Source: Pirellulales bacterium
Lineage (GTDB): Bacteria; Planctomycetota; Planctomycetia; Pirellulales; JACPPG01
Assembly (NCBI GenBank): GCA_036499395.1
Contig: DASYDW010000123.1
Coordinates: forward strand, 59,144-123,143
Length of the DNA stretch: 64,000 bases
Direction: 5' to 3'
Both the position numbers and the translations under genes were made by a program. How positions within the stretch are numbered: the first letter of the stretch is position 1; each line of letters begins with the position of its first letter. Of the stretch, positions 38,361 to 58,411 are shown in pieces. The notes under the pieces are model-generated. The model saw only the letters and a list, made by a program, of their open reading frames with translations, searched no databases and had not been told where the DNA came from.

Positions 38361-39800
38361 ATGAAAAACTCGTTACGCCCGCGCCGCGTTGAGCGTCTCA
38401 TTTGCTTGCGATGCGATTTTTATATCCTGCTCGCAACGTCGCTCGCTACTCTCTGCGCCCATTCGAATGCCGTGGCCTCTGCGGCTGATGACACGAAGAC
38501 ATGGCAGGCCGGCATCGCTCGGGTCGTCATTACGCCCGAGCATCCTATGTGGCTGGCCGGCTACGGCGGGCGCAATCGGCCAGCCGAGGGAAAGGAACAC
38601 GACCTGTGGGTCAAGGTCCTCGCGCTGGAAGATGCCTCGGGCCGTCGCGCGGTTTTGATCACCAGTGACCTGCTGGGCTATTCACGCGTGATGTTCGAAT
38701 CGATCCGAACGGCGCTCAAAGAGCGGTGCGATCTCGATCCGGCGCAGGTCATGCTCACCGCGTCGCATACGCACAGCGGCCCTGTCGTGCGCGAGTCACT
38801 GCTGGATTACTACCCGCTCGACGATGCAGAAATGGCGCTGGTCGAAACGTATTCGCAAAAGCTCGAACAACAAATCGTCGACACGGTATCCGCGGCGATC
38901 AAGGATCTGAAGCCGGCCACGCTCGAAGCGCGGCGCGGGACTGCGACATTTGCCGTCAACCGGCGCGCGAATCGCGAGCCAGAAGTGGCCGACCGTTTGG
39001 CCCGCGGCGAGTTGCTCGCCGGACGTGTCGATCACGACGTGCCCGTACTGACGGTGCGGAACACGGCAGGCGAATTGCAAGCGATCGTCTTTGGCTACGC
39101 GTGCCACAACACCACGCTCGACTGGTATCGCTGGTGCGGCGACTTCGCCGGCTTTGCCCAGGAGAAACTCGAGGCCGCGCATCCCGGCGTGACGGCCATG
39201 TTCTACACTGGTTGCGGCGCGGATCAGAATCCCCTACCGCGGCGCACCGTGGACCTGTGCCGTAAATATGGACAGTTGCTGGCCACTGGCGTCGAAGAAG
39301 CACTGACCGGCTCATCACGCGAACTCGCGCCGACGCTCAAGACCGCGCTGTCCGAAATACCGCTCAAGTTCGAGCGCAACAGTACGCAGGAAGAGATCGA
39401 TCGCTACGCAACAGCCGACGGCATCCGCGGACGCTGGGCGCGGCGCTTGCTCGCGAGGCAACAAGCGGGCGAGAAGTTTTCGCAATCAGTTCCGTACACG
39501 ATTCAAGTCTGGCGGCTGGGAGACCAACTGTGGATCAGCCTCGCCGGCGAAGTCGTGGTCGATTATGCGTTGCGTTTCAAGCGCGACTACGGCGATCAAA
39601 TCTGGGTCACTTCATACGCGCATGATTTGCTGGCCTATATCCCCTCGCGCCGCGTCTGGGACGAAGGGGGCTACGAAGGTGGCTCGCTGTACGAATACGG
39701 CCTGCCCGCCGAACGCTGGGCCGATGATGTCGAGGACCGCATCACCCTGGCCGTCGAGAGTCTAGTGCAACAGACGAGTGAATCTCGCAATCGCGAATAA
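38361..39800 (+). CDS. Neutral/alkaline ceramidase N-terminal-domain-like secreted hydrolase (paralog of 55403..56782)
   Basis: Signal peptide, then WQAGIARVVITPEHPMWLAGYGGRNRPAEGKEHDLWVKVLALEDASGRRAVLITSDLLG...ASHTHSGP. Collinear similarity to the 55403 gene. A GTG at 38325 would overlap the dgkA stop. Confidence 0.6.
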   Translation: MKNSLRPRRVERLICLRCDFYILLATSLATLCAHSNAVASAADDTKTWQAGIARVVITPEHPMWLAGYGGRNRPAEGKEHDLWVKVLALEDASGRRAVLITSDLLGYSRVMFESIRTALKERCDLDPAQVMLTASHTHSGPVVRESLLDYYPLDDAEMALVETYSQKLEQQIVDTVSAAIKDLKPATLEARRGTATFAVNRRANREPEVADRLARGELLAGRVDHDVPVLTVRNTAGELQAIVFGYACHNTTLDWYRWCGDFAGFAQEKLEAAHPGVTAMFYTGCGADQNPLPRRTVDLCRKYGQLLATGVEEALTGSSRELAPTLKTALSEIPLKFERNSTQEEIDRYATADGIRGRWARRLLARQQAGEKFSQSVPYTIQVWRLGDQLWISLAGEVVVDYALRFKRDYGDQIWVTSYAHDLLAYIPSRRVWDEGGYEGGSLYEYGLPAERWADDVEDRITLAVESLVQQTSESRNRE

Positions 39801-49616: not shown

Positions 49617-51002
49617 ATGTTAACATTTGCCGATAGCGCCGGACGACTTGCTCGCCGCGGATTCTTGCGCGCGGGCGCATTGTCACTCGGCGGATTATCG
49701 CTGCCTGGCTTGTTAGCGCATGCCGCGGCTGACCCGCAACGCTTGCTCACGGGCCGGTCGGTCATCTTTCTGTTCTTGCACGGCGGACCGAGCCAGTTCG
49801 AAACGTTCGACCCCAAGATGTCCGCGCCGGCCGAGATCCGTTCGACGACGGGCGAGATTCCGACCGCGATCCCCGGTCTGACGTTCGGCTCGTCGTTCCC
49901 GAAGCTCGCGCAGCTCGCCGATCGCCTGACGATCGTGCGCTCGTTCACAACCGGCGACGCACGTCACGACATCAAACCGATCGTCAGCCGGCACACTGGA
50001 GGCGCGAATCTCAGCTCTTACTATGCCCGCGTCGCTGGTGCTACCGACCCCACGAGCGGCATGCCGCGCACGGCGCTCTTGTTCCCGCGTGCCGTCAATA
50101 CAAGTGCCGGTCCCGAGCAGACGCAATTCGGGCGCTTCGATTCGACGGGCGCCCTCGGTTCCGGCTGCGCCCCGTTCGTCCCCGGCGCCGGCGGCGATCT
50201 GCAGCGCGACATGCAGCTCAACTTGTCCATCGATCGACTCGATGACCGCCGGGCATTGCTTGGCGAACTTGATCGCGTTCGCTGGCTGTTCGACGCGACT
50301 GGCCAGGCCGGCTCGCTCGACAAGCTGCGCGAGCAGGCCTTCAGCAGCGTGCTCAACGGGGTGTCGAAAGCTTTTGACCTGGCGCGCGAAGAACCTCGCG
50401 TCATCGAACGATACGACACAGCCCCGTTGGTCCAGCCCGACCAGATCGATCGCAAGTGGAAGAATTACGAACACTACTGCGACAATGCCAAGTCGCTGGG
50501 CAAGCTGCTGCTACTGGCGCGTCGGCTGTGCGAGGCGGGGGCCGGTTTTGTCACGGTGACCACCAATTTCGTATGGGACATGCACGCCGACGTCAACAAC
50601 GCCCATTGCGCCGAAGGAATGCGTTACATGGGCCCGCCACTCGATCACGCCGTGTCCGCGCTCGTCGAGGATCTTCACCAGCGTGGGCTCAGCGACCGCA
50701 TTCTGCTGGTCTGTTGCGGTGAAATGGGGCGCACGCCCAGGCTGAACGCCCACGGCGGCCGCGACCACTGGGGCAACCTGGCCCCGCTACTACTGGCCGG
50801 TGGCGGATTGCGGATGGGACAAGTGATCGGGCAGTCGACCCGCGACGGCAGTCAGCCGCTGACCGAACCGATCAAGATTCCGAACCTCGTGGCCACGATT
50901 CTCGAGCGGCTCGTCGATCCGGCCGAACTACGACTCGTGCGCGGCATGCCGAACGAAGTGGTGCAAGCCGCCACGGCCGCGCCGATTCCCGGCCTGCTGT
51001 AA
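49617..51002 (+). CDS. DUF1501 domain protein (sulfatase-fold, Tat signal)
   Basis: Tat leader ARRGFLRAGALSLGG and the hallmark VIFLFLHGGPSQFETFDPK, plus GEMGRTPRLN...GRDHW. Confidence 0.85.
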   Translation: MLTFADSAGRLARRGFLRAGALSLGGLSLPGLLAHAAADPQRLLTGRSVIFLFLHGGPSQFETFDPKMSAPAEIRSTTGEIPTAIPGLTFGSSFPKLAQLADRLTIVRSFTTGDARHDIKPIVSRHTGGANLSSYYARVAGATDPTSGMPRTALLFPRAVNTSAGPEQTQFGRFDSTGALGSGCAPFVPGAGGDLQRDMQLNLSIDRLDDRRALLGELDRVRWLFDATGQAGSLDKLREQAFSSVLNGVSKAFDLAREEPRVIERYDTAPLVQPDQIDRKWKNYEHYCDNAKSLGKLLLLARRLCEAGAGFVTVTTNFVWDMHADVNNAHCAEGMRYMGPPLDHAVSALVEDLHQRGLSDRILLVCCGEMGRTPRLNAHGGRDHWGNLAPLLLAGGGLRMGQVIGQSTRDGSQPLTEPIKIPNLVATILERLVDPAELRLVRGMPNEVVQAATAAPIPGLL

Positions 51003-51048
51003 TCGATTGACTTTCTTTCCGAGGATCGCGGTACCGGCGTGTCGCCTG

Positions 51049-52035
51049 CTACGCCCGATCAAACGGAAAGGCGATCACCTCTGCAATCGTGCGTGCGCCC
51101 GTCGCCAGCATCATGACGCGATCGAAACCGAGCGCCACGCCGCAGGCTGCGGGCAGACCATAATCCATCGCCGCTAGTAGCCGGCTTTCCTCGGGCAGTG
51201 TCGGTTTGCCATCGGCGGCGCGGTTTTCGTTGTTCTCACGATTCCGTGCGCGCAGCACGGCCGGATCGAGCAACTCGTGATAACCGTTCGCCAACTCCAC
51301 GCCACGCACGTAAAGCTCAAAGCGTTCGGCCACCGCCGGCGGGCCGGGTCGCACGATCGCCAGTGCCGCCTGCGTCGGCGGATAGTCGTGCAGAATCACG
51401 GGCGTCTCAAAACCTAATCGTGGTTCCACAAGTGAAACCAATAGCAGATCGAGCCACGCATCACGATCGGTCGCGTCAAGACTTTCCGGCGCCGAGATTC
51501 CCTGCTGCCGAACGGCTGCGCGCAGTTCGTCCGGGGTCGCCGCATGCGGATCGATGCCGACAAACTTTTCGAACGCCGCTTGATAAGTCAGCAATTCCGC
51601 CGGCGGCGTGTCGAGCATCGCGTGGCAAAGATCATCCAGGAATTGCATGCCCACGTGCATTGAGTCTCCGCGGCGATACCATTCGACGATCGTGAACTCG
51701 GAATTATGCCGATCCCCGATTTCCTCACGGCGAAAGGCACGCGTCACCTGATAGATCGCCTCGCCCCCGGCGGCCAGCAGTCGCTTCATGCCGAACTCTG
51801 GGGACGTCTGCAGCCAATACTTCTTAATCGCCCGCCCGTCGGCATCCCCTGCGACAGGAACACAAAAGGGATCAAGAAAACGATCCACAACCGTATCGGC
51901 CGACAGAATCGGCGTCTCGACTTCGAGAAATCCGTTCTTTGCAAAGAACTCGCGCAGGCGGGCCAACAGAGCCGCGCGACGGCGCAATATCTCCCAGTTC
52001 GCTGTCGGGCGCCAATCTTCGCGGTTTTCACTCAT
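51049..52035 (-). CDS. epmA: EF-P--(R)-beta-lysine ligase (EpmA/PoxA/GenX)
   Basis: LysRS class II catalytic-core paralog without an anticodon domain: LRRRAALLARLREFFAKNGFLEVETPILS, EFTIVEWYR, GVALGFDRVMML. 328 aa. Confidence 0.85.
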   Translation of the reverse strand: MSENREDWRPTANWEILRRRAALLARLREFFAKNGFLEVETPILSADTVVDRFLDPFCVPVAGDADGRAIKKYWLQTSPEFGMKRLLAAGGEAIYQVTRAFRREEIGDRHNSEFTIVEWYRRGDSMHVGMQFLDDLCHAMLDTPPAELLTYQAAFEKFVGIDPHAATPDELRAAVRQQGISAPESLDATDRDAWLDLLLVSLVEPRLGFETPVILHDYPPTQAALAIVRPGPPAVAERFELYVRGVELANGYHELLDPAVLRARNRENNENRAADGKPTLPEESRLLAAMDYGLPAACGVALGFDRVMMLATGARTIAEVIAFPFDRA

Positions 52036-52868
52036 CGTGCGGGCTCACTCTCGGTGAACTTCCCGCGGTCATCGACTTCGAACACGCGCTCGATCGACGG
52101 CGATCCGTACTCGGCACCGCCGGTCAGCACGCGAATATTCGGCGCCGGCCGGGCTTCGCCTCGCCCATGCGTGTGGCCGCATAGGACGATCAGTTCGCGC
52201 GCCGGGAAATCGCGCATGACTAACAACAACGCGTCCCCCATCGCCTGCGACGTGAAATGCGGCAGCCATTCGTCGTTCGAGATTTCCCCCTGGTGCCAAC
52301 ACGACTCACGAAATGGTGGTACGTGCGTTACCAACACGACGCGGGTAAATCGCTCGAGCGCCGTCGGCAGGACGTCGCGAATATGAGCAGCTGCGGCATC
52401 TGCCTCGGCCATTAGTAGCGGCCAGCGGGCTTCCTTGCTCATCGAAGCGAATTCCGCGATCAGTCGGTAATCGTTCATCATCACGAGCGACCGCTCATAG
52501 TCCCCCAGTCGCGCGTCGGCCCAACCGTCGTGGCCAACGAGTCCCGTATCGGGCGCCAGGGGAATCGGATCCGCGCTGCTGAGCCAGACCAGTCGTGGCT
52601 CGCGCCGGCAAAGGTCCGTCACCGCAGCCCGTACTCCCGCGATCGAGCCGTGGTAAAAATCGTGGTTGCCGAGCACGAAATAAATCGGGCCGCGCAACCG
52701 GCCAGCAATCCACTCGAGATAATCCACGAGATTTTGCGATTCGGCGATGTCGCCGCTAATCAGAACCGCATCGGCGCGGACCGCCGCGACGCGCGTCAGA
52801 TACCCGTCGACGGCGTCGCCCGACAAAAAGTTCAGGTGCAGGTCCGTAAGCCAGGCAATGCGTGTCAT
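52032..52868 (-). CDS. Calcineurin-like metallophosphoesterase
   Basis: Motifs WLTDLHLN, SGDIAES, GNHDFY and CGHTHG in canonical order. The stop overlaps the epmA start as ATGA. ATG at 52868; GTG at 52901 is also possible. Confidence 0.75.
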   Translation of the reverse strand: MTRIAWLTDLHLNFLSGDAVDGYLTRVAAVRADAVLISGDIAESQNLVDYLEWIAGRLRGPIYFVLGNHDFYHGSIAGVRAAVTDLCRREPRLVWLSSADPIPLAPDTGLVGHDGWADARLGDYERSLVMMNDYRLIAEFASMSKEARWPLLMAEADAAAAHIRDVLPTALERFTRVVLVTHVPPFRESCWHQGEISNDEWLPHFTSQAMGDALLLVMRDFPARELIVLCGHTHGRGEARPAPNIRVLTGGAEYGSPSIERVFEVDDRGKFTESEPAR

Positions 52869-52884
52869 GCGAATTCCCGGCCGC

Positions 52885-53649
52885 TTAGGCCGCACCCACA
52901 CTTTGCAGCGCTACGCCCACCGCATAGCTCAGCGCGGCCGTTACGCCGCCGATGACCAGCGTCTCGAACCCGGCGCGAACGACCGGTTCGTCAAGGACCA
53001 GTCCGCGCGCGATGCCTACGCCCAGAAACGCCACGCCGGTCGCCGCGGCGCTTGTGCCGAAGATGGCCGCGGGGCTGCCGCCGATACCCAATAAAAATGG
53101 CAACAGCGGCGTCAACCCCACGACGACAAACGAGACAAAGGTCGACGCCGCCGCGCGCAGCGCGCTCGGTGACTCGAGCCGTAGCCCCAATTCTTCGGTC
53201 AGCATCGTATCGACCCATCGCTGCCGATCGGTCGTGATCACCGAAACGATTTCGTCAAGGATGCGTCCTTCGAAACCCTTGGCGGCGAAAATTTGGCGTA
53301 CCTCTTCGCGCTCGCCGTCGGGCACCTGCTCGACGTGCATCTCCTCGATGCGCCGCGCGCGATCGACAAGCTGGCGATCTGTTTTGGTGCTCAAGTAGTT
53401 GCCGGCCGCCATGCTGAAACCATCGGCCAACAAGTTGGCAACTCCCAGCACGATCGCCACGCCACTGGGCAGCCCCGCTCCGGCAACACCCGCAACCACG
53501 GCGAACGTCGTCACGGTACCGTCCATGGCGCCCAGGACAAAGTCGCGCAGATAGCTGTGCTCGGTCGCGGATCGCAAGCGGCGCCGGATCGCCGCCGGCG
53601 TATGCTCGGCATCGAGTGGATCGGCGCGTCGCGCCTTCAGAAAGCTCAT
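52885..53649 (-). CDS. VIT1/CCC1-family iron/manganese transporter
   Basis: [28 protein letters not shown] and a five-TM layout typical of the VIT family. ATG at 53649 is preferred over the track start at 53730. Confidence 0.8.
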
Positions 53650-53668
53650 GGTGTACTCGGCGCTTGCG

Positions 53669-54592
53669 CTACGCGATGGCAGTTTTGCTTGATTCCCCAG
53701 GCAGCTCGCGGACATAGCGCGGAACTGCATAACCCGGCAGGCGCGCTGTGAGCTGTGCCATCAATTCACGTCCACGCGACACAGGAACCTCGAAATGCGC
53801 GCCGCCGGCCACCGGATCGAGTTGGTGCAAGTAGTAAGGCATCACGCGCAGATCAACGAGTCGCTCGCACAACGCGGCCAGCGCCTCGACTGAATCATTG
53901 ACGCCGCGCAGTAGCACGGCCTGGTTCAATACGACAATGCCCGCGTCAACAAGCTGCCCAAAGGCAGCGGCCACGGCGTCGTCCAGCTCTGCGGAGTGGT
54001 TTGCATGTACGACGACGATTGGCGTCAGGCGGGTGCCGGTGAGCCAGTTCAACAACTCGCTGCACACGCGGCCGGGAATCATGATCGGCAGTCGGGTGTG
54101 AATGCGCAGCCGCCGCAGATGCGGGATTGCGGCCAACCGCTCGGCCAGGCGCGCCAGAAAATCGTCGACCATCACCAGCGGATCGCCGCCAGAGAGCAGC
54201 ACCTCGTGCAGGGAGGAATCTTCTTCGATCGCGCGGAAGGCCGGCTCCCACGCCGATAGCGATTTGGGCGCTTCCTGATAAGGAAAGTGCCGACGAAAGC
54301 AGTAACGGCAATGCACAGCACAGGCGCCGGTCGTGATCAACAAGGCCCGGCCTGGATATTTTTGTAACAAGCCCGGCGTTCTTTGAGCCGCTCGATCATC
54401 GACCGGATCGGTCGAGAAGCCCGGCACGATTTCCTGCTCAGCCAGCACCGGCAAAACCTGGCGCAAGAGTGGGTCGTGGGGATCACCCGGCCGGATGCGC
54501 GACAGGAACTCGCGCGGCACGAACAAGGGAAAATCGCCCGCCGCGGCCAGGGCTTGCGCGGCGAAATCGGCTGGTAAGTCGAGTAACCGCAC
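53669..54592 (-). CDS. epmB: EF-P beta-lysylation protein EpmB (lysine 2,3-aminomutase, radical SAM); true start probably further upstream
   Basis: Radical-SAM CxxxCxxC as [11 protein letters not shown], plus the KamA family pattern ([30 protein letters not shown]). The first canonical start is GTG 54592, but homology continues upstream (see findings). Confidence 0.85.
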
Positions 54593-54799
54593 CAGCTCGT
54601 GCGGGTCGCGTACCGCCTGCCGCAGCTCGCGCCGCCAACATGGCTCGGCCGGGGGGGAGTTGGGGCGGACAGAATCGGTCTGGATCGCTAAAATGGTCGT
54701 TTACCTTTTATGAACCAAGCCTGCTCGGGGGAGCTTTCCTCGCCCAGGCAATCGTAGCATACCCCCCCACCCATTCGCGACAAGACAGGACGATTCACC

Positions 54800-55369
54800 G
54801 TGGCCAGCTATTCCACCAGCGACTTCAAGAAGGGCCTGAAGATCCAGATCGACGGCGATCCCTACATCATGGTCGAATGCAACTTCGTCAAGCCGGGCAA
54901 GGGAAACGCCCTGTACAAGTGCAAGATGAAGAACCTGGTCCGCAACTCGATGCTCGAGCGCACCTACAAGGGGGGCGATTCGCTCGAGGCGGCCGACGTC
55001 ACCGAGATCGACGGTCAGTATCTTTACCGTCAGGGTGAGAATTTCGTCTTCATGGACAACACCACGTACGAGCAGTATGAGTTGACCGCCGCTCAGGTCG
55101 ATGACACGTGGAAGTGGATCAAGGAAGGGATGATTTGCCGGATGGTGTTGTTCAACAATAATCCCATCACCGTCACGCCCCCGAACCACGTCGTGCTGAA
55201 AGTCGAATACGCCGAGCCGGCCGTCCGCGGTAACACGGCCACGAACTTGACGAAGCCGGTGAAGCTGGAAACCGGCGCCGAGATTCTGGTCCCCGCCTTC
55301 GTCGAGCAGGACTCGTTCATCAAGATCGACACCCGCACGGGCGAATACCTGGAGCGGGCCAAGGAGTAG
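54800..55369 (+). CDS. efp: Elongation factor P
   Basis: MASYSTSDFKKGLKIQIDGDPYIMVECNFVKPGKGNALYKCKMKN, with the modifiable Lys at position 34 in the KPGKG loop. 189 aa. Confidence 0.95.
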   Translation: MASYSTSDFKKGLKIQIDGDPYIMVECNFVKPGKGNALYKCKMKNLVRNSMLERTYKGGDSLEAADVTEIDGQYLYRQGENFVFMDNTTYEQYELTAAQVDDTWKWIKEGMICRMVLFNNNPITVTPPNHVVLKVEYAEPAVRGNTATNLTKPVKLETGAEILVPAFVEQDSFIKIDTRTGEYLERAKE

Positions 55370-55402
55370 CACGACGCGCGCGGTTTCCGCTGCGATCGAT
55401 CC

Positions 55403-56782
55403 CTACGGCTTAGTCGCCACCTGCTTGCGCACTTCGCGGATAATGGACTCTTCGACCTCGGGGGCCCAGGAGGTCGGTAGGCCGTAGAAGATCATCGCGC
55501 TCGCGCCCTCGTAACCCCCTTCGGTGAGCACCCGGCGCGAAGGGATGTAGGCCATCACGTCATTCGTATAGCCAGCGACCCACACGCGCTCGTTGGGCAA
55601 TTCTGCCTTGAGTCGCAGCGCATAGTCGACAACGACTTCGCCCCCTAACGTGATCATCACGGGACCGTCCCCCAGGCGCCAAACCTCGATCGGATAGGGA
55701 TACGTCGGACTCAGCGGCTGACCGCCGTCGATCTGCGCCAGTAATAGCTTGGCACGCGCCGCCTGGTACTTGTCCGACGATGCCGCCTGCGTTTTCAACT
55801 CCTCGTTCGTAGGTAATGTCGCGAACGGCAGGTCGATCTCGTCATACGAGGTGTGCAACCGGCCAGCGACGGGAGTGAGTTCACCGGCCAGCACCTGATC
55901 GACCGCATCACTCATCTTCTGGCCATATTTTTCGGCCAGCTCCACGGTGCGGCGCGGCAGCGGGTTTTGATCCGCCCCACAGCCGGCCCAGAACATGGCG
56001 ACCGTACCGGGGTGTTCGCGCTCAAGATCAATTTGCGCAAAGCCCGGCCAATCTCCGGTCCACTGATAGAACGACAGGGCCGTGGCGTGACAGGCGTAGC
56101 CAAAGACGACGGTCTTCAATTTTCCCGCCATGTCTTTCACAGCCAGCACCGGCACATCGTGATCCACCGGCCCTTTCAGTTTCCCTTCGGCTGCCAGTTT
56201 TGGCACCTCAGGCTCGAGATTCGTCCGCCGGTTGACGGCAAAGGTCGCGTTGCCATCCGCCCACGCGAGCGTTGCCGGGGCGAGATTCTTGATCGCCTCG
56301 CCGACCACCGCGATCACCTTGGCTTGCAGACCCGCGGTGTACTCGTCGATCAGCCGGGATTGTTGCTCGTCCAGGAAATACATGGCGCGCAGGTTGTGTC
56401 CTACCACCGGTCCGGTGTGGGTGTGCGAGCAATTGATCGCGACTTGCGATTTTTTTAATCCGTACTTCGTTTCCAATTCACCACGGATCGCCAGCGACAA
56501 CACTCGATCGATGCCGACCAGGTCGAGCGTTACCAACACCGCGCGCCCTCCGGTCGCATCTTCCAGCACCAGTGCCTTGGCCCACAGGTCGTGCAGCTTC
56601 CCCTCGGCGGCGTGGTCACGGCTCGAATAGCCGCTCATCCACATGGGGCGCTCGGGCGTGATGACCGTTTTGGCCACGCCGGCTTTCCAGGCAACAGGAT
56701 CAGTCGCCAAAACATCCGCGGACGGCGCCGCCAACGCGACGATGGCAGCCATGAACGAGAGGTGTGCGATCGAGAATCTCAT
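55403..56782 (-). CDS. Neutral/alkaline ceramidase N-terminal-domain-like secreted hydrolase (paralog of 38361..39800)
   Basis: Signal peptide, then WKAGVAKTVITPERPMWMSGYSSRDHAAEGKLHDLWAKALVLEDATGGRAVLVTLDLVG...CSHTHTGP. Collinear with the 38361 gene along the whole length. Confidence 0.6.
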   Translation of the reverse strand: MRFSIAHLSFMAAIVALAAPSADVLATDPVAWKAGVAKTVITPERPMWMSGYSSRDHAAEGKLHDLWAKALVLEDATGGRAVLVTLDLVGIDRVLSLAIRGELETKYGLKKSQVAINCSHTHTGPVVGHNLRAMYFLDEQQSRLIDEYTAGLQAKVIAVVGEAIKNLAPATLAWADGNATFAVNRRTNLEPEVPKLAAEGKLKGPVDHDVPVLAVKDMAGKLKTVVFGYACHATALSFYQWTGDWPGFAQIDLEREHPGTVAMFWAGCGADQNPLPRRTVELAEKYGQKMSDAVDQVLAGELTPVAGRLHTSYDEIDLPFATLPTNEELKTQAASSDKYQAARAKLLLAQIDGGQPLSPTYPYPIEVWRLGDGPVMITLGGEVVVDYALRLKAELPNERVWVAGYTNDVMAYIPSRRVLTEGGYEGASAMIFYGLPTSWAPEVEESIIREVRKQVATKP

Positions 56783-57494: not shown

Positions 57495-57649
57495 GCCCGG
57501 TCGTTGGATCGATTTCTCCCGCCTGTCTGTTCTGCGCGCGTTTTGGCTGCGACACTGTTCGCGCAGCGCGTGCTATCATAGACCCGCCGATGCGAGCGGC
57601 TTGTACCTCGCACTTCTCGGCAGCGCGCCCCCGATCAGGAGATTTCGCG

Positions 57650-58411
57650 ATGCAACTGGGACTTGTCACTTACATGTGGGGCGCGGAATGGGACCTCCCC
57701 ACGCTGATCAAGAATTGCCAGTTGACCGGTTTTCGCGGCGTCGAGCTGCGGACGACCCACAAGCATGGCGTCGAGCCGGCGCTCTCGGCTGACCAGCGGC
57801 GCGAAGTGAATAAGCAATTCACCGACAGCGGCGTCGAACTCGTCGGGCTCGGCACGACCTGCGATTTTCACTCACCCGACGCTGCCGAGCTGAAGAAGCA
57901 AATCGAAGAAGCGAAGTCGTTCATCAAGCTCAGTCACGATTGCGGTGGCACGGGCATCAAGGTCCGCCCGAACGGTCTTCCGAAAGAAGTCCCCGTCGCC
58001 CAGACGCTCGAACAGATCGGCCGCTCGCTGGCCGAACTGGCCGCCTTCGGCGAAGGATATGGGCAAGTCATCAGACTCGAAGTGCATGGCCGCGGCACGG
58101 ACGAGCTGCCGCGCGTAAAAGCGATCATGGACGCCGCCACGCATCCCGGGGCGGTCGTCTGCTGGAATTGCAATCAAACCGATCTATCGGGCGCGGGGCT
58201 GGTCGATAACTTCAATCTCGTGAAGGATCGCCTCGGCACGATCCACATTCACGATCTCATCAGCACCTATCCCTGGCAGCAGCTGTTCGGCCTGCTGAAC
58301 GGCGCCAACTTCACCGGCTGGACCTTGGTCGAAGAAGGGGACAAGACGGCCGACCCAGTGCGTGTGATGAAGTACTATCGGCTGCTCTGGGAACGAATGA
58401 CCGCGAAGTAG
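57650..58411 (+). CDS. Sugar phosphate isomerase/epimerase (xylose isomerase-like TIM barrel)
   Basis: About 250 aa. GFRGVELR, GIKVRPNG, RLEVHG and IHIHD resemble the AP endonuclease 2 / xylose-isomerase-like TIM barrel family. ATG at 57650. Confidence 0.7.
   Translation: MQLGLVTYMWGAEWDLPTLIKNCQLTGFRGVELRTTHKHGVEPALSADQRREVNKQFTDSGVELVGLGTTCDFHSPDAAELKKQIEEAKSFIKLSHDCGGTGIKVRPNGLPKEVPVAQTLEQIGRSLAELAAFGEGYGQVIRLEVHGRGTDELPRVKAIMDAATHPGAVVCWNCNQTDLSGAGLVDNFNLVKDRLGTIHIHDLISTYPWQQLFGLLNGANFTGWTLVEEGDKTADPVRVMKYYRLLWERMTAK

Follow-up and report, generated by a model that had tools for sequence, protein, structure and literature searches.

Elongation factor P (EF-P) and the enzymes that modify it are encoded together at positions 51,049 to 55,369 of a 64,000-nt stretch of DNA from a Pirellulales bacterium (assembly GCA_036499395.1, contig DASYDW010000123.1), the whole of which we call the window. 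We are concerned here with two further genes, coding for a transporter of the VIT1/CCC1 family and for a metallophosphoesterase (MPE), which are lodged there between two of the modification genes, epmB and epmA. The efp gene is divergent from a minus-strand series that runs epmB, VIT1, MPE, epmA (Table 1), an order that had first been proposed, together with the KPGKG loop of EF-P and its Lys34, by a reading made from the sequence only, and that was confirmed by a listing of the open reading frames (ORFs) and by scans with hidden Markov models (HMMs).

Table 1. The efp/epm unit of the window, its spacer and the neighbouring genes discussed in the text
Feature	Coordinates	Strand	Evidence or remark
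efp, elongation factor P of the Lys34 type, substrate of the modification enzymes	54800-55369	+	TIGR00038, 239.7 bits (cutoff 185.8)
epmB, radical-SAM lysine 2,3-aminomutase	53669-54592 from GTG (53669-54700 with extension)	-	TIGR03821, 418.3 bits (cutoff 369.3)
VIT1/CCC1-family Fe2+/Mn2+ transporter, 254 aa	52885-53649	-	PF01988, 198.5 bits (cutoff 28.1)
Cytoplasmic metallophosphoesterase (MPE) of a widely conserved subfamily	52032-52868	-	PF00149, 45 bits (cutoff 21.5)
epmA, EF-P-(R)-beta-lysine ligase, paralogue of the LysRS catalytic core	51049-52035	-	TIGR00462, 345.1 bits (cutoff 286.9)
Spacer between the divergent efp and epmB, 207 nt as far as the canonical GTG of epmB	54593-54799		alignment with relatives
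DUF1501 gene, flanking	49617-51002	+	typical of Planctomycetota
Secreted ceramidase-like gene, flanking	55403-56782	-	typical of Planctomycetota
Second ceramidase-like paralogue	38418-39743	+	50% identical to the 55403-56782 gene
Xylose-isomerase-like TIM-barrel gene	57590-58411	+	

The three core proteins have the expected features. EF-P displays its three Pfam domains, with K34 at the tip of domain I in the loop FVKPGKG, and EpmB carries the radical-SAM CxxxCxxC motif in the form CAVHCRYC. EpmA, with 328 residues, covers only positions 167-484 of the lysyl-tRNA synthetase (LysRS) model and is devoid of an anticodon-binding domain; its residues 6-328 match the GenX/PoxA structures 3g1z and 3a5z over their full length (E about 1e-82), and it reaches 332.2 bits with NF006828 (cutoff 264). 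By homology, EpmB would convert L-lysine into (R)-beta-lysine, which EpmA, using ATP, would then join to Lys34 of EF-P. As far as the sequence can tell, we are dealing with an ordinary Pirellulales locus for EF-P beta-lysylation of the EpmAB type. A family resembling EpmC/YfcM had no match among the ten annotated genes located between 47995 and 58411, the remainder of the window not having been scanned for it.

The four minus-strand genes are tightly packed. Direct reading of the DNA found 19 nt between the TAG of epmB and the ATG of VIT1, 16 nt between the TAA of VIT1 and the ATG of MPE, and, at the junction CGATGAGT, the stop codon of MPE overlapping the start codon of epmA as ATGA (-4 nt), exactly as first described; the VIT1 and MPE start codons behind the two gaps are backed by the lengths and alignments of homologues. 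A consensus scan of 50800-55600, of a kind that covers planctomycete promoters poorly, revealed nothing like a sigma-70 promoter on the minus strand, be it in the gaps or elsewhere, and a single promoter-like site on the plus strand (54666-54694). Terminator-like matches in the same interval all fall within coding sequence and are rarer than in shuffled sequence. Scanning 50900-55500 with Rfam, at E values up to 1, returned one chance-level match only and no riboswitch ahead of VIT1. The co-expression put forward by the sequence-only reading appears likely from this tight spacing, and epmB, VIT1, MPE and epmA would most likely be carried by one mRNA, starting in the spacer that epmB has in common with efp. 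Base composition, in terms of GC content as well as GC at third codon positions (GC3), is even along the whole unit, and a recent transfer of VIT1 or MPE was therefore rejected.

How stable is this arrangement? The MPE has many homologues, the named ones from Pirellulales or Planctomycetia, and comparison by tblastn of the contigs that encode the closest of them gave six loci, L161-L166. Four of these (L161-L164, EF-P 94% identical to that of the window) have the order epmB-Usp-VIT1-MPE-epmA with flanks as in the window, where Usp stands for a tandem universal stress protein of about 300 aa inserted between epmB and VIT1. The fifth (L165, EF-P 92% identical; L161-L165 are five loci on four contigs) has the same order in flanks that differ, and L166, the EF-P of which is 95% identical, has epmB and MPE separated by 88 nt, then epmA, with neither Usp nor VIT1. 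The flanks of L163/L164 comprise a response regulator, the ceramidase, DUF1501 and ORF493, subsets of which are seen in the shorter-covered L161 and L162; L166 shares the response regulator and the ceramidase with the window and differs downstream, where it carries non-ribosomal peptide synthetase genes. In the 64 kb of the window there is no Usp homologue, and the clean 19-nt gap occupies 53650-53668, in contrast with the Usp gene of L161-L165 and of two loci from the wider comparisons described below (L170 and L009). On the ENA contigs of L161, L162 and L166, VIT1, epmA, epmB and DUF1501 are found in frame-shifted pieces, assembly error being more likely than pseudogenes, so that gene presence in these three was judged by tblastn and not by gene calls.

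Within a single tight clade, then, the content of the epmB-MPE interval varies (Usp with VIT1, VIT1 alone, or nothing) and the MPE-epmA succession is constant. The ATGA coupling itself is restricted to the window and L163/L164, gaps of about 10 to 150 nt being found at this junction in L165, L166 and L170. Synteny in relatives had been suggested as a check on the two embedded genes, and its outcome is split: MPE stays between epmB and epmA in all six closest loci, and VIT1 is missing from that interval in L166.

The VIT1 protein spans positions 1-213 of the 214 of the PF01988 profile, and its residues 31-250 match the structure of EgVIT1 (6iu3, E 1.6e-30). Like EgVIT1 and the bacterial MbfA it has the VIT1 domain in full, down to the metal-binding region that lies in the cytoplasm between transmembrane helices; unlike MbfA, it is without the ferritin-like (erythrin) N-terminal domain, the 33 residues ahead of its VIT1 domain having no other Pfam match. 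Members of the VIT1/CCC1 family, in plants, in yeast and in the case of EgVIT1, move Fe2+ and Mn2+ out of the cytosol. This bears on the suggestion, made in the sequence-only reading, that the transporter might be of direct help to EpmB, as a source or a buffer of the iron that goes into its [4Fe-4S] cluster. Position speaks for it, as VIT1 follows epmB directly, after 19 nt in the window and likewise in three other loci (L021, L092 and L105). Yet the gene is lacking in L166, despite an EF-P that is 95% identical, and it is found near epmB in only two of 80 loci anchored on epmB and in one of four loci anchored on VIT1. Those four VIT1 orthologues are 62-68% identical to that of the window, and three of them (62-66%) reside in unrelated ion-transport contexts: one with RNase III/TetR and MgtE nearby, one with a Na/Ca exchanger, one with Usp and a P-type ATPase (L169). 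The fourth belongs to L170, the fullest unit that we have seen, with the order epmB-Usp-VIT1-PQQ-MPE-epmA, PQQ being here a secreted PQQ-like beta-propeller. Furthermore, the family exports its metals, which argues against a supply role, as export of Fe2+ or Mn2+ would reduce, not increase, the iron available in the cytosol. A direct contribution to the EpmB cluster thus hardly seems credible, and, judged by its distribution, VIT1 is a dispensable, variable passenger gene.

The MPE calls for closer scrutiny. In 24 homologues none of its catalytic motifs varies (D9xH11, G39D40, G67N68H69D70, H182 and G231H232xH234), and the subfamily has an invariant block of its own, C190-W191..G194..S197.D199.W201.P203-H204-F205. 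The AlphaFold2 model (mean pLDDT 93.4) has the MPE sandwich fold with a helical insert at about residues 129-173, and there is no signal peptide, as beta-strand 1 and the DxH motif come right at the start of the sequence. The protein fits no named subfamily: TIGR03729 gives 26.5 bits for a cutoff of 148.25, and no other NCBIfam model matches. Against the PDB, a profile search found only weak matches to GpdQ (1.8e-4, over 43 residues) and Lmo2642, and Foldseek returned generic MPE folds (PptH, purple acid phosphatases, ADPRibase-Mn, LpxH and Mre11) with TM scores of at most 0.62 and identities of at most 17%, the best structural neighbour being PptH (6unc, TM 0.62), with LpxH at TM 0.39-0.46. 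The enzyme of the window shares all the metal-binding and catalytic motifs with GpdQ and the Icc-CpdA class III phosphodiesterases, PptH, the purple acid phosphatases and LpxH, but matches none of them at the level of the family, and has its own invariant block and helical insert. It also differs from ApaH, the GDxxDRG motif of which is missing, motif II reading GDIAES.

Two assignments were tried and abandoned. A role as LpxH came from an N-terminal likeness perceived by eye only; no LpxH HMM matches, and the family occurs in Chloroflexota, which mostly do without lipid A. A pairing of MPE with the ceramidase-like protein in sphingolipid metabolism was considered as the two genes are often adjacent and as acid sphingomyelinase has the MPE fold (Foldseek rank 50); it was dropped since a signal peptide is present in the ceramidase-like protein and not in the MPE. 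The ceramidase-like gene does recur beside the MPE/epm block in Pirellulales (L004, L008, L021, L024, L089, L122, L133, L153 and L162-L166), and the window holds a second copy of it at a distance (Table 1).

To see the company that the MPE keeps more widely, 80 loci, one genome per species, were taken with flanks of 10 kb, searched with the proteins of the window, and their ORFs clustered. Single-linkage clustering merged antisense ORFs (clusters c0 and c1), and the counts given here therefore come from tblastn with the window proteins. MPE adjoins epmB or epmA in 14 species loci of the Pirellulales type, 12 of them with an upstream flank of 5 kb or more, and is in this sense a recurrent neighbour across Pirellulales. 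Eleven other long-flank loci of this type have no epm gene nearby, and in a neighbour-joining tree of the MPE linked and unlinked loci are intermixed inside the Pirellulales-type clade. The usual linked order is epmA<efp<epmB>[X]>MPE (each gene followed by its direction), where X is nothing, VIT1, Usp with VIT1, or the PQQ-like propeller. This propeller makes a useful control: it adjoins MPE in 15 species loci, against 13 in which epmB adjoins MPE, and, being secreted, the propeller cannot reach the cytoplasmic EF-P. Outside the Pirellulales, MPE orthologues with 48-59% identity are found in Chloroflexota, Acidobacteriota, Myxococcota (Sorangium), Gemmatales, Phycisphaerae, Omnitrophota, Nitrospirota, Gemmatimonadota and others, and none of these loci, from at least eight lineages, has an epm gene within 10 kb.

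The converse comparison, anchored on epmB, used 80 metagenome loci with EpmB 53-70% identical to that of the window. In most of them efp is divergent from epmB, and in many epmA lies beyond efp, the order epmA<efp<epmB> being common. Where EF-P is at least 60% identical and at least 1 kb of downstream sequence is available, any of Usp, VIT1, PQQ or MPE occurs in 9 of 25 loci; apart from these, what follows epmB differs greatly from locus to locus. MPE is present in only one of the 28 loci in which EF-P is less than 60% identical or missing from the contig, namely L089, where the contig is truncated and has no efp. In three marine loci (L122, L133 and L153) the pair ceramidase>MPE> sits at the far end of the cluster, beside epmA. 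Conserved co-localisation with epm genes across independent EpmAB lineages, by which an accessory gene would be recognised, was found for neither MPE nor VIT1.

What these loci share is an order. Wherever its members occur, the cassette begins with the tandem Usp, followed by VIT1, the secreted PQQ-like propeller, an M50 peptidase and, as its last and most persistent gene, MPE: thus L013 has Usp-PQQ-M50-MPE, and PQQ-M50-MPE is found in L001 and L008, where the 10 kb on either side hold no epm gene. Such a fixed order makes differential loss from a longer operon headed by epmB the simplest reading. We would accordingly place at the origin a Pirellulales operon with epmB at its head and the cassette as its tail, from which different lineages lost different members, the window having kept VIT1 and MPE. 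A second step is suggested by L021, with the order epmA<efp<epmB>VIT1>MPE><ceramidase, which is exactly one inversion, from efp to MPE, away from that of the window, epmA<MPE<VIT1<epmB<efp><ceramidase. A single inversion of the efp-epmB-VIT1-MPE segment would have put epmA straight behind MPE, and it is this inversion that would make the ceramidase gene now abut efp. From then on epmA would have depended on read-through, the MPE-epmA junction would have been compacted later to ATGA, and, to go by the spacing, the translation of epmA would be coupled to that of MPE through this overlap. A second inversion, of the whole block, would lead to L165. Since one inversion yields the order of the window, the embedding of the two genes between epmB and epmA, which had seemed to be the striking feature of the locus, appears as a derived state.

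We can then understand VIT1 and MPE as co-expressed passengers, probably in charge of stress, metal or nucleotide housekeeping, and not as steps in the modification of EF-P. Of the products of the cassette, Usp and the phosphoesterase are cytoplasmic, the exporter and the protease belong to the membrane, and the propeller is secreted; as a set they show no coherent relation to the chemistry of EF-P. Passenger genes that hitch-hike in a decaying and rearranged EpmAB operon are the best explanation of the locus, one that we hold to be probable on these genomic comparisons; operon hitch-hiking, which the sequence-only reading had kept as a fallback, is what fits the comparative evidence best. The lesson is more general. 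One inversion can bring a gene of an essential pathway, here epmA, under the dependence of an unrelated gene upstream, to the translation of which its own is coupled, and, as a single inversion is able to create such coupling, tight spacing alone is weak evidence for shared function.

Several observations pull the other way, and they concern the MPE. Of the 23 Pirellulales-type species loci whose upstream flank measures 5 kb or more, about 12 have it next to epmB or epmA; this linkage takes six or more local forms, and gaps of 8-60 nt are frequent among them; the gene is found in 4 of the 14 epmB loci with EF-P at least 60% identical and at least 2.5 kb downstream; and it is kept in every member of the clade of the window though Usp and VIT1 come and go. 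The loci are phylogenetically non-independent, yet this persistence could stem from selection for co-expression. Co-transcription and the lack of internal promoters, on their side, are inferred from spacing and a weak consensus scan only, and the literature searched holds no EF-P modification mass for any planctomycete.

These same points would be accounted for if the MPE were a fourth component of the EF-P system, specific to Pirellulales, that clears a by-product of EpmA or a mis-activated adenylate, or that adds or removes a phosphate-linked group; its substrate might be a dinucleotide of the Ap4A type, or an adenylate of the alpha-lysyl-AMP type, made by the LysRS-like EpmA. The ATGA coupling of the window and L163/L164 would agree with such a function, as would the intact catalytic motifs of this cytoplasmic protein, and PptH, its top structural neighbour, strips a modification from a protein, weak as the match is. 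LysU, of the LysRS family, makes Ap4A (PMC9437257). Yet in the papers found this synthesis is reported for LysU and not for EpmA/PoxA, and the MPE is without the ApaH motif; the clearing by MPE of Ap4A made by EpmA was accordingly rejected as an explanation of its own, and survives only inside this wider proposal. Phosphoester hydrolysis has no obvious substrate within the known pathway. The family, at about 50% identity, is spread over many phyla, Gemmatales and Phycisphaerae being further examples, without any epm gene beside it; the 11 unlinked Pirellulales loci and the near absence of MPE from epmB loci with a distant or missing EF-P tell against a dedicated role, and the secreted propeller and the membrane M50 peptidase are linked to MPE equally often. 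Of the pathway role first imagined for the MPE, what stands is thus the recurrent linkage and the retention in the closest loci, and what weakens it is a family widespread without epm genes, a single case among distant epmB loci, a propeller just as frequent, and an MPE-epmA junction derived by inversion. In view of the persistence of MPE by epm genes across Pirellulales, we keep a direct role on the list, as quite unlikely.

An intermediate possibility is that Usp, VIT1 and MPE form a stress, metal or nucleotide module of their own, co-regulated with EF-P modification without any chemical action on EF-P. In such a module VIT1 might set the level of cytosolic Fe2+/Mn2+ for the two-metal MPE, with Usp as a nucleotide-binding regulator. 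The order Usp-VIT1-MPE does recur (L009, L161-L165 and L170), Usp and VIT1 are found together beside the P-type ATPase in L169, and the tandem Usp lies directly behind epmB in five further loci (L096, L098, L135, L137 and L160). Against this, each of the three is found apart: the window, L021 and L092 have no Usp, L166 has MPE alone, many loci carry PQQ-MPE instead of Usp-VIT1-MPE, and VIT1 orthologues elsewhere have no MPE nearby. We consider this module unlikely, and retain the hitch-hiking of passenger genes as our preferred account.

The wider neighbourhoods of the MPE deserve to be recorded for their own sake. Mostly in Anaerolineae (L047, L048, L051, L052, L064, L067, L075 and L080), the gene comes directly behind, and often overlaps, a gene for a low-molecular-weight tyrosine phosphatase, in a conserved block, located some 2.5 kb ahead of MPE, of a bactofilin, a HEAT-repeat protein, an unknown gene, the phosphatase and MPE. 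Elsewhere, in other phyla, MPE often has a gene for a Ser/Thr kinase as its neighbour (L049, L057, L058 and L068). These contexts hint at a signalling-related role for the family. One locus of Pirellulaceae (L043, 10001-11645) has a tandem duplication of MPE, the copies being 52% and 49% identical to that of the window. A gene resembling that of diaminopimelate decarboxylase is located 2-3 kb downstream of MPE in L012, L018, L020 and L026, and is seen also in L017 and L036; it belongs to the extended efp/epm neighbourhood of one subgroup of Pirellulales, and there is none in the window. Diaminopimelate decarboxylase catalyses the final step of the synthesis of lysine, the substrate of EpmB. 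Finally, the TIM-barrel gene of the window has orthologues just downstream of MPE or epmB in twelve loci (L012, L017, L018, L020, L022, L026, L028, L046, L094, L100, L101 and L128), a recurrence which indicates that the conserved syntenic block is the entire neighbourhood, beyond epmB-MPE.

The beginning of epmB is a further peculiarity of the unit. Upstream of its first canonical start (GTG, 54592) there are 36 conserved N-terminal codons, beginning just past a TAA at 54703-54701, none of which is ATG, GTG or TTG; counted from the GTG, EpmB spans positions 17-321 of the TIGR03821 profile. At 54700-54698 the window has ACG, as does L161, where L162 has ACC and L163, L165 and L166 have ATG. Two codons on, an ATT (54694-54692) is kept in the window, L161, L162 and L163, and is replaced by ATC in L165 and L166. 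Probably, epmB either uses a non-canonical start (AUU or ACG) or has suffered an N-terminal truncation, the anomaly being shared by three independent assemblies. It may even be that epmB is deliberately translated from such an AUU or ACG codon, its expression being then tied to the fidelity of initiation. In the spacer that precedes it, two blocks are invariant in six relatives: GTCCTGTCTTG, at about 54791-54781 on the minus strand, which in the plus-strand sense is the AGGA-containing leader of efp, and TATGCTACG, at about 54761-54753. Together they could make up a promoter of epmB, TTGTCG-16-TATGCT, with TATGCTACG as its -10 element; this candidate scores 8/12, under the threshold of the scan.

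The modification of EF-P varies with the bacterial lineage, the residue attached being beta-lysine, rhamnose or 5-aminopentanol. For half of all EF-Ps no modification is known, according to passages of Brewer and Wagner (2024, PMC11388002). With modifications so variable, and so many EF-Ps in that situation, an extra enzyme proper to one lineage would count: if true, it would be a real addition, and the maturation of planctomycete EF-P would then be unlike the E. coli paradigm. A review of 2026 names only EpmA, EpmB and EpmC for the beta-lysylation pathway (PMC12856214), and in the literature searched no paper ties EpmB to a metallophosphoesterase, or EF-P and EpmB to a universal stress protein.

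How does the locus compare with the systems that have been described? The passages of Brewer and Wagner that deal with Planctomycetes state that this class gained its EF-P of the Lys-EpmAB type by horizontal transfer, and that efp is flanked by epmB in most of its species (PMC11388002). As far as these passages describe them, the locus of the window is of the same lineage, with the same EF-P type and the same efp-epmB flanking; in the passages searched, neither a cassette of Usp, VIT1, PQQ, M50 and MPE downstream of epmB nor a relocation of epmA behind MPE is mentioned. The same source, in the part consulted, tells of earP-efp loci that cluster with the dTDP-rhamnose genes rfbB, rfbC and rfbD and move with them as a unit (PMC11388002). 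On that description the likeness is that an EF-P modification enzyme is clustered with extra genes in both cases; the difference is that the extra genes of the earP-efp loci make the donor substrate, whereas those of the window are variably present and have no evident place in the synthesis or transfer of beta-lysine.

With respect to the standard set of E. coli and Salmonella (efp, epmB/yjeK, epmA/yjeA/poxA/genX and epmC/yfcM), the window has in common an EF-P with Lys34 in KPGKG and equivalogs of EpmA and EpmB. In enterobacteria efp and epmB are adjacent and divergent, as they are in the window. The window departs from that standard in that epmA probably belongs to one transcription unit with epmB, from which two unrelated genes separate it, and in that the epmB start appears to lie at a non-canonical position. 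Going by gene content and order, the core of the locus is the known EpmAB system, and what is seen here is a cassette downstream of epmB together with the relocation of epmA.

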